From assembly GCF_003334305.1 (NCBI RefSeq), contig NZ_QOWS01000018.1: 64,000 nt of DNA; one strand, given 5' to 3'. Origin of the DNA: Escherichia coli. Lineage in GTDB: Bacteria > Pseudomonadota > Gammaproteobacteria > Enterobacterales > Enterobacteriaceae. Below the pieces are notes generated by a model that was not told the origin of the DNA, ran no database searches, and saw nothing but the letters and a program-made list of their open reading frames with translations. Positions 50,440 through 50,700 of the stretch are shown here, in pieces; the stretch's first letter is position 1; each line of letters opens with the position of its first letter. Made by a program: the position numbers and the translations under genes.

Positions 50440-50700
50440 TAAATTGAATGGTGCAGGGAGCGCGCAGGGGGCGGCCAATCGCCGCGGCCCCCTGCACCCC
50501 CGGGCTCTGGCGAACAAAATCGCCGCTGCGCGGTACCTTCAGCTTATCCCCTTCGGCTACCGGGTCGGGCGCGAGGTAACGTCCTGTAAGACGCGCCCTC
50601 AGCCCACATCCATGTGGGCTGCCCCGGCCTTCGGGGAACGCTTCAGCGATTTTGACGCCACCAACACCCGCGCTGTTCTTATGTTCCGGGCAAAAAGTTA
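50440..50700. repeat. GC-rich palindromic intergenic element(s) between putP and efeU
   Basis: ggtgcaggg...ccctgcacc nested inverted repeats; GC-rich unlike flanking DNA; track ORFs here are likely non-coding. Confidence 0.4.

Follow-up and report, generated by a model that had tools for sequence, protein, structure and literature searches.

A very probable full-length TRIP1b copy of the TRIP1/RRS repeat family in the putP–efeU spacer of Escherichia coli

Identity and extent of the repeat

A GC-rich palindromic block lies between putP and efeU in the window (the whole stretch of 64,000 nucleotides of Escherichia coli DNA that was analyzed), which raises the questions of what this block is, how far it extends and what it may do. 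The spacer is bounded by the putP ORF (48861–50369, + strand; stop codon at 50367–50369) and the efeU ORF (51026–51865, + strand). A first-pass annotation, made from the letters alone, had placed the element at 50440–50700. An element was indeed found there, but the repeat unit is the 267 bp at 50411–50677, and the palindrome is only its 5΄ third. These limits were taken from BLAST and nhmmer boundaries at query positions 7–273 (= 50411–50677), obtained with copies from many loci, and leave 41 nt (50370–50410) between the putP stop codon and the start of the repeat at 50411. Since the two orientations of the element at aqpZ-lysO could be compared with each other, and Klebsiella copies were also available, the true ends probably lie at about 50390 and 50687. 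The contrast in composition that had been pointed out was borne out: the GC content is 64.8% in the 267-bp unit and 39.4% in the rest of the spacer, and in 100-nt windows the GC fraction is 0.65–0.72 over 50400–50650 and 0.32–0.48 farther right. The parts of the element referred to below are as follows.

50411..50677, C-rich strand = window + strand: core of the full-length TRIP1b copy (RRS family), by homology to other copies
50416..50461, no strand assigned: helix P1, GCTCCC (50416–50421) with GGGAGC (50456–50461), enclosing an AT-rich loop of about 34 nt
50464..50495, no strand assigned: hairpin P2, GCAGGGGGCG (50464–50473) with a 3΄ arm of the GCCCCCTGC type (50486–50495)
50482..50501, − strand: G-rich tract GGGGGTGCAGGGGGCCGCGG, one base from the RRS G-quadruplex (G4) motif GGGGGTGCAGGGGGCGGCGG (PMC10592627)
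50494..50617, no strand assigned: 124 nt absent from K-12 TRIP1b, by alignment (125 bp according to PMC10888264)
50508..50660, no strand assigned: branched domain, closed by TGGCG..AAAATCG (50508–50522) with CGATTTT..CGCC (50647–50660)
50600..50621, no strand assigned: hairpin P9, CAGCCCACA-TCCA-TGTGGGCTG, standing on the invariant core CATCCATG

We compared the unit with the copies in MG1655 and found identities of 89.1% over 267 nt to TRIP1c and 87.2% over 281 nt to TRIP1a; for TRIP1b, the identities were 93.7% and 95.9%, one figure for each side of the K-12 deletion. The TRIP1 family (Rudd 1999, Res Microbiol 150:653) is treated by Li et al. (2024, PMC10888264), and that paper places TRIP1a after aqpZ, TRIP1c after yohI (dusC) and TRIP1b 41 bp after the putP stop codon of K-12, the last shortened to a partial 146 bp by an internal deletion of 125 bp; TRIP1d (alx-sstT) and TRIP1e (copA-ybaP) are described there from strains other than K-12. 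TRIP1 elements are the same as the replication risk sequences (RRS), as stated in PMC10592627, where RRS-lysO corresponds to TRIP1a and RRS-dusC to TRIP1c; the RRS name was introduced in 2023 (Pham et al. 2023, PMC10287960; Pham et al. 2024, PMC10592627). The window copy resembles the K-12 copies in its locus (41 nt past the putP stop codon and upstream of efeU/ycdN), in its sequence (87–96% identity) and in its very stable predicted fold, which is of the branched 'double-Y' kind (−133 and −143 kcal/mol as RNA), and its length (267 bp) and GC content (64.8%) fall within the TRIP1 ranges of 146–273 bp and 62–65% G+C. Whereas the K-12 form of TRIP1b is the 146-bp partial one, the window form is undeleted. 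Because the 41-nt spacing and the flanks are the same as in K-12 and the other loci are the published TRIP1 loci, we conclude that the window palindrome is very probably part of a full-length TRIP1b copy of the TRIP1/RRS family, that is, of an element that acts by folding back at the DNA level. The family itself is already known, and the guess in the first-pass annotation of a dispersed family distinct from REP was right; what was obtained here is the identity of the block, the extent of the unit, the conservation of its fold of several helices, the state of the allele and its orientation with respect to the K-12 map.

The 281-nt query matched all 5,426 of the complete E. coli genomes examined, at 1–8 places each (median 3), and the other sites were dusC-yohP, sstT-alx and aqpZ-lysO, corresponding to the published TRIP1c, TRIP1d and TRIP1a loci; the window contains one copy only. 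The palindrome alone (65-nt query) was found at 1–5 places per E. coli genome, always within TRIP1, and at 3 in K-12 strains, and the branched domain alone (173-nt query) at 1–10 places, 3 of them in K-12 W3110. The two parts therefore travel together as one unit. The element is thus multi-copy, and its symmetry is kept through compensatory changes (see below), so it is neither a single-copy sequence nor one with unconserved symmetry. No copy was annotated among the matches in complete E. coli genomes. A phage collection yielded no match to the element, and a full-text literature search with stretches of its sequence retrieved no paper.

For the comparative analysis, copies were gathered from species-representative genomes, from chromosomes filed in a plasmid collection and from a metagenome scan (163 nhmmer hits; 102 distinct full-length copies). 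The species-representative genomes with copies were those of E. coli, E. albertii, E. whittamii, other Escherichia and Pseudocitrobacter, and the chromosomes in the plasmid collection were those of K. pneumoniae (13 places in one chromosome), K. aerogenes, Citrobacter freundii and Pantoea. At least about 66 flank groups were distinguished in the metagenome set. In Klebsiella loci, the element and a REP-like unit are repeated together in tandem, with a period of 437 bp or of about 653 bp, and Citrobacter and Pseudocitrobacter loci contain tail-to-tail inverted pairs between convergent genes (L022:2008–2739; L032:1850–3448; L024:2378–3014; L071, L110, L028, L007, L019).

Several records in these collections call for a remark of their own. 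Short contigs of very low coverage (0.7–0.8) assigned to unrelated species, namely Pseudobutyrivibrio (L006, 432 bp), Bacillus sp. (L017, 583 bp) and a Burkholderiales MAG (L012), carry E. coli sequence of TRIP1b or of TRIP1 and most likely represent E. coli contamination. Some PLSDB 'plasmids' are whole chromosomes, namely NZ_OL790696.1 (4.8 Mb), CP125156.1 (5.37 Mb) and NZ_CP134663.1 (4.9 Mb), and all 35 of the 35 matches in the plasmid collection were typed as non-mobilizable. An 88-kb E. coli plasmid that looks genuine, pMTY11352_3, carries a chromosomal macA-poxB segment with a deleted TRIP1a.

REP units are about 35–40 bp long and occur in hundreds of copies. Like the present element, they are palindromes of intergenic DNA that follow genes and have been implicated in DNA topology, but the two differ in size and copy number. 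REP/BIME was rejected, with no REP-type match (GCCGGATG...CATCCGGC) inside 50411–50677, in line with the earlier description of the element as something other than classical REP. The nearest REP unit is separate: a REP-type palindrome (GGCTGGATACGGCGTTTACGCGGCATCCGGC) lies at 50795–50831, 118 nt to the right of TRIP1b, and accounts for the only Rfam signal of the spacer, which is a partial match to naRNA4/REP325 and scores below the gathering threshold (28 bits, E = 0.0086). BoxC and RSA, the two other families that had been named as candidates, were unsupported by copy number. BoxC is GC-rich, intergenic and of dyad symmetry, and its 56 bp roughly equal the size of the palindrome; we rejected it on copy number, as it has about 33 copies in K-12 (PMC5172473), compared with 1–5 places per genome for the 65-nt palindrome and 3 in K-12. 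RSA, at about 150 bp and low copy number, is similar in size to the K-12 short form and to the branched domain, but has 6 copies of 150/151 bp in K-12 (PMC5172473), compared with 3 K-12 places for either half of the element, and this difference in copy number argues against RSA.

A conserved fold and its alternative readings

The strong inverted symmetry that had drawn attention to the block is real. Nested inverted repeats lie in 50450–50498 (50450–50461/50487–50498 and 50464–50475/50484–50495, each 12 nt at 92%), and the element folds beyond chance on both strands, with z scores of −3.1 (+) and −4.1 (−) as RNA and −5.3 (+) and −4.8 (−) as DNA; in each of the four runs, none of 200 shuffles folded as well. 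The outer arms first described are present in the window (GGTGCAGGG/CCCTGCACC), but they pair perfectly only in this allele, the other copies having GGCGCA[AG]GG versus CCCTG[CT]ACC. The outer pairing supported by covariation joins GCGCTCCC (50414–50421) with GGGAGCGC (50454–50461), and is followed by the hairpin 50464–50473/50486–50495.

We derived a consensus fold with RNAalifold from 16 copies and examined it in 103 sequences. Standard pairs were found in 97.4% of the cells, and 37 of the 65 pairs had changed on both sides (553 cells); in controls, slid structures gave no more than 14 such pairs or 46 cells, and none of 500 shuffles reached the observed values. Helix P1 was paired in 99.7% of the cells, with both-side changes in 3 of its 6 pairs (for example, CGTTCAC/GTGAACG in Citrobacter), and P2, the inner palindrome, in 99.1%, with both-side changes in 8 of 10. 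The top pair of P2 in the window, 50473/50486, is a G-G mismatch unique among the 103 copies, which is due to the same substitution that alters the G-rich tract. The branched domain contains a small hairpin, CCGC-TGC-GCGG (50523–50533), and helices P4–P8, together with the terminal hairpin P9, a perfect inverted repeat (10 nt at 100%) in which 7 of 9 pairs had changed on both sides, as in TRIP1d (GCCGCGCAT/ATGCGCGTC). Helices 3–11 were 87–99.7% paired, most of them with both-side changes, and those of the branched domain recurred in single-sequence DNA folds of both strands. Unpaired motifs such as CTTATCCC and CATCCATG are conserved, and the unpaired C-run at 50497–50501, which corresponds to the first G-run of the G4 strand, has invariant columns (C50500 and C50501 in all 103 copies). 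The compensatory changes seen across the family argue for maintenance of the whole fold.

Within single loci, stem changes that break pairs outnumbered compensated ones (15 versus 6), and most of the covariation therefore lies between subfamilies; paired columns nevertheless varied less than unpaired ones (32 versus 53). Given this pair breaking and the recurrent deletions described below, in-place selection on the putP-efeU copy may be weak.

The first-pass annotation had also held that the block generates spurious ORFs. Four ORFs, of 85, 43, 40 and 31 aa, overlap it, and in some genomes (records H10, H16, H140, H141 and H143; PGAP) 'hypothetical protein' features lie under the match, so that a small protein gene such as the 85-aa ORF at 50444–50701 has to be considered. 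We used a codon-position test, as a test for stop-free frames does not discriminate in GC-rich DNA, where such frames are expected at 65% GC. None of the four ORFs exhibited an excess of third-position changes (p = 0.41–0.73, 103 copies). Moreover, the copies differ by indels of 1, 2, 11 and 124 nt, and the substitutions track base pairing, not codons. A protein gene is accordingly an exceedingly improbable reading, coding is excluded for practical purposes, and the evidence argues that the PGAP calls over TRIP1b are spurious. A minus-strand leader, consisting of a Shine-Dalgarno-like AAGGAGCGCAAC, an ATG and a mini-ORF at the P1 end, was also considered and dropped, because neither the position of the ATG nor the mini-ORF is shared by E. 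coli and Klebsiella and the element follows genes and does not precede them.

The strong covariation and the conserved unpaired motifs would also suit a structured RNA, either the 3΄ untranslated tail of putP or a small RNA of its own, in which the fold acts as RNA, for example by REP-like protection against 3΄ exonucleases, or as a non-coding RNA, which Li et al. have also proposed (PMC10888264). The pair 50558/50626 is U-G in 102 of 103 copies and 50581/50585 alternates between G-U and A-U, which points in the same direction. A scan revealed no terminator-like site in the element or between it and the putP stop codon, and in a B2 allele a classical terminator takes the place of the element; putP transcripts therefore probably run into the element. 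However, the scan also found no promoter-like site in 50250–51100, and neither strand matched an Rfam family at permissive thresholds. The two orientations are equally frequent in tandem-gene spacers (22 versus 22, by crude ORF calls and with non-independent loci), and both occur at aqpZ-lysO across lineages. Apart from the two pairs mentioned, G-U is not favored over A-C: with one curated structure, we counted 27 G-T and 46 A-C cells, a pattern more in keeping with a constraint at the level of DNA, or of both strands, than with one acting on a single strand of RNA. Strand assignment by this comparison is ambiguous, as RNAalifold run per strand shifted registers and manufactured wobble pairs, and the signal obtained with the one curated structure rests on two pairs. 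In addition, the effect of the sister copies has been demonstrated experimentally at the DNA level (PMC10592627; PMC10287960). We therefore consider it unlikely that the fold acts as RNA, although an RNA-level and a DNA-level role are mutually compatible.

Another reading is that of a non-autonomous mobile element of the MITE or REP-like type, in which the fold is needed only for the spread of the element itself and the putP copy is a passive remnant. The copy number varies accordingly, from 1–8 places in E. coli to the 13 of the K. pneumoniae chromosome, with at least about 66 flank groups, both orientations, tandem arrays and tail-to-tail pairs; copies lie 20–100 nt from a stop codon in convergent or tandem gene spacers and rarely in divergent ones, so that divergent promoter regions are avoided; and the covariation mostly between subfamilies and the recurrence of deletion derivatives are compatible with such a history. 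By contrast, flank alignments at many loci, including the two orientations at aqpZ-lysO, revealed neither terminal inverted repeats nor a target-site duplication, and a MITE was rejected for this reason. Neither putP-efeU nor aqpZ-lysO offered a clean pair of filled and empty sites, the differences being whole-spacer replacements or internal deletions, and the ORFs within 2.5 kb of the copies included no recurrent transposase or recombinase, only orthologous flank genes. Furthermore, E. coli as a species uses only about five TRIP1 loci (PMC10888264), and both sister copies can be lost only if there is compensation (PMC10592627). A passive mobile remnant thus appears a poor candidate, with little probability, and the DNA-level fold-back element of the TRIP1/RRS family remains our preferred reading.

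Alleles at putP-efeU and aqpZ-lysO

Four classes of spacer were found between putP and efeU. The window type has TRIP1b complete. The K-12 type, with the same flanks, is missing the 124 nt equal to window 50494–50617, so that its G-rich tract has lost the first G5 run and most of its branched domain is gone. In the Z1002 type, which is otherwise full length, 11 nt are lost from the 3΄ arm of P1. In the B2 type (EC958), TRIP1b and the nearby REP are both absent, and putP is followed by a classical intrinsic terminator in a spacer of 210 bp; this type and that of the window differ by the replacement of about 450 bp and not by a clean insertion. The segment 50370–50410 of the window type has no terminator-like hairpin, whereas B2/ST131 (EC958; L026:351–569) has the terminator CAGGCAGAGGGCAATCAGTGATTGCCCTCTGCGTTTTTT, and putP termination may differ between lineages.

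Copies at least 95% identical to that of the window over the whole 281-nt query were present in 602 of 5,435 records. No mention of an intact TRIP1b allele was found in the passages of Li et al. (2024) that were examined, the term 'full-length' is absent from that paper (PMC10888264), and putP is not mentioned in the RRS papers (PMC10592627, PMC10287960); the intact allele appears not to have been discussed previously.

At aqpZ-lysO, O145:H28 RM12761 and MP1 carry TRIP1a (RRS-lysO) turned around with respect to its neighboring genes and within different flanks; in MP1, it has an internal deletion as well (L150:150–608 and L148:150–471, compared with L149:150–645). These alleles are natural inverted or damaged forms of an element reported to be conditionally essential and orientation-dependent. 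Larger internal deletions recur (K-12 TRIP1b, L021, L148 and L008), and an identical 11-nt loss (GCAGGGAGCGC) between the tandem direct repeats GCAGGGAGCG/GCAGGGGGCG was found in copies at four different loci (L027:370–658; L018:13925–14215; L047:488–778; L094:6260–6548), which suggests a slippage-prone structure. Two metagenome copies (L080:4328–4629 and L135:1476–1777) have aqpZ-lysO flanks together with the P2 variant typical of dusC (GGGGGAGGA/TCCTCCCCC), and appear to have arisen by exchange between TRIP1a and TRIP1c. TRIP1 copies serve as homology for large chromosomal inversions, and 156 rearrangements mediated by TRIP1 were described by Li et al., most of them involving the TRIP1a/TRIP1c pair (PMC10888264).

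Orientation of the G-rich tract and relation to the RRS pair

[quoted passage not shown] Once an RRS has been unwound by the replisome, its G-rich strand adopts a G-quadruplex and the element takes up a very stable structure (PMC10592627); if the G-rich strand serves as template for the lagging strand, stalled polymerases leave behind a gap, up to about 2 kb long, onto which SSB and RecA are loaded (PMC10592627; PMC10287960). At least one RRS is required for normal growth and normal genome supercoiling. Deletion of both is tolerated only with a compensating 200-kb amplification or an RRS that is placed elsewhere or inverted, with global changes in supercoiling; an inverted engineered RRS produces no RecA/SSB peak, yet permits the other RRS to be lost (PMC10592627). 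The authors further note that homologues are widespread in enterobacteria, with extra copies in some species, and hypothesize that RRS act as topological relief valves (PMC10592627).

The window copy is homologous to this pair (87–89% identity), and shares with it the high GC content, the extensive secondary structure and a G-rich tract at the same position, in which there is one substitution within the 20-nt G4 motif. This leaves both G5 runs intact and still allows a four-tract G2+ pattern. The G4Hunter score is −1.60, compared with −1.84 for K-12 TRIP1a and −1.36 for the deleted K-12 TRIP1b. The published search of K-12 for the G4 motif found no third site (PMC10592627), because the deletion in K-12 TRIP1b takes out the first G5 run.

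The exact motif occurs in MG1655 at 915,191, on the top strand of the clockwise replichore, and at 2,229,193, on the bottom strand of the counter-clockwise one, and both sites fit the lagging-strand template, as published. The + strand of the window corresponds to the top strand of MG1655 at putP, where the TRIP1a motif is also on top. The G-rich strand of the window copy would therefore be the bottom strand of the clockwise replichore (1.08 Mb) and hence, assuming a K-12-like arrangement, the leading-strand template, in contrast to the lagging-strand-template orientation of the RRS pair. Such an arrangement agrees with the gene order putA-putP-efeUOB and with strain H15, in which a 100% identical copy lies on the + strand at 0.85 Mb; the GC skew of the window (0.0014) is uninformative for the direction of replication. 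With dif near 1.59 Mb and putP at 1.08 Mb on the K-12 map, the copy would lie about 0.5 Mb from dif, without a symmetric partner and away from the roughly 650-kb positions of the pair, whose symmetry about dif has been proposed to be important.

The capacity of the pair to trigger gaps has been demonstrated experimentally, whereas the window copy is known from its sequence and predicted fold. Because of the leading-strand-template orientation and the substitution in the G4 tract, the putP-efeU copy would be expected to be a weak or silent trigger of gaps, a prediction whose chances we regard as evenly balanced. It might then act mainly as very stable fold-back DNA directly past putP, possibly as a spare RRS, and could be a recombination partner for TRIP1a and TRIP1c. 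The pilE G4 of Neisseria gonorrhoeae is a single locus and acts in antigenic variation. It is the other bacterial gap-triggering G4 cited by the RRS authors (PMC10592627), and has no sequence relation to TRIP1b.

A bolder proposal is that the whole multi-helix fold, beyond the G4 tract, is under selection across Enterobacteriaceae, that hairpins on both strands matter, and that the intact, oppositely oriented putP-efeU copy is a working spare or modulator of the two Ter-flanking RRS. We put this forward as speculation that is probably not correct. If it were true, an intact third copy could, for instance, permit the loss of both native RRS, or its C-rich hairpin strand could stall the lagging strand.

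The additions made here to the published work are modest: the intact TRIP1b with its reversed orientation, the natural inverted and deleted forms of RRS-lysO, and the covariation for the whole fold. For annotation, TRIP1b explains the spurious hypothetical-protein ORFs of the putP-efeU spacer. RRS/TRIP1 is a recently recognized genome feature, in which programmed replication stalling shapes the topology of the chromosome. Work in K-12 treats RRS as a pair, because the third copy of K-12 is a deleted stump without the G4 motif. In many natural E. coli, roughly a tenth of the genomes, this third copy is intact, and its G-rich tract, which is close to the canonical one, lies in the orientation for which experiments showed no gap peak. 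Natural variants, namely intact TRIP1b and inverted or deleted RRS-lysO, thus allow the contributions of orientation, G4 tract and hairpins to be tested against one another.
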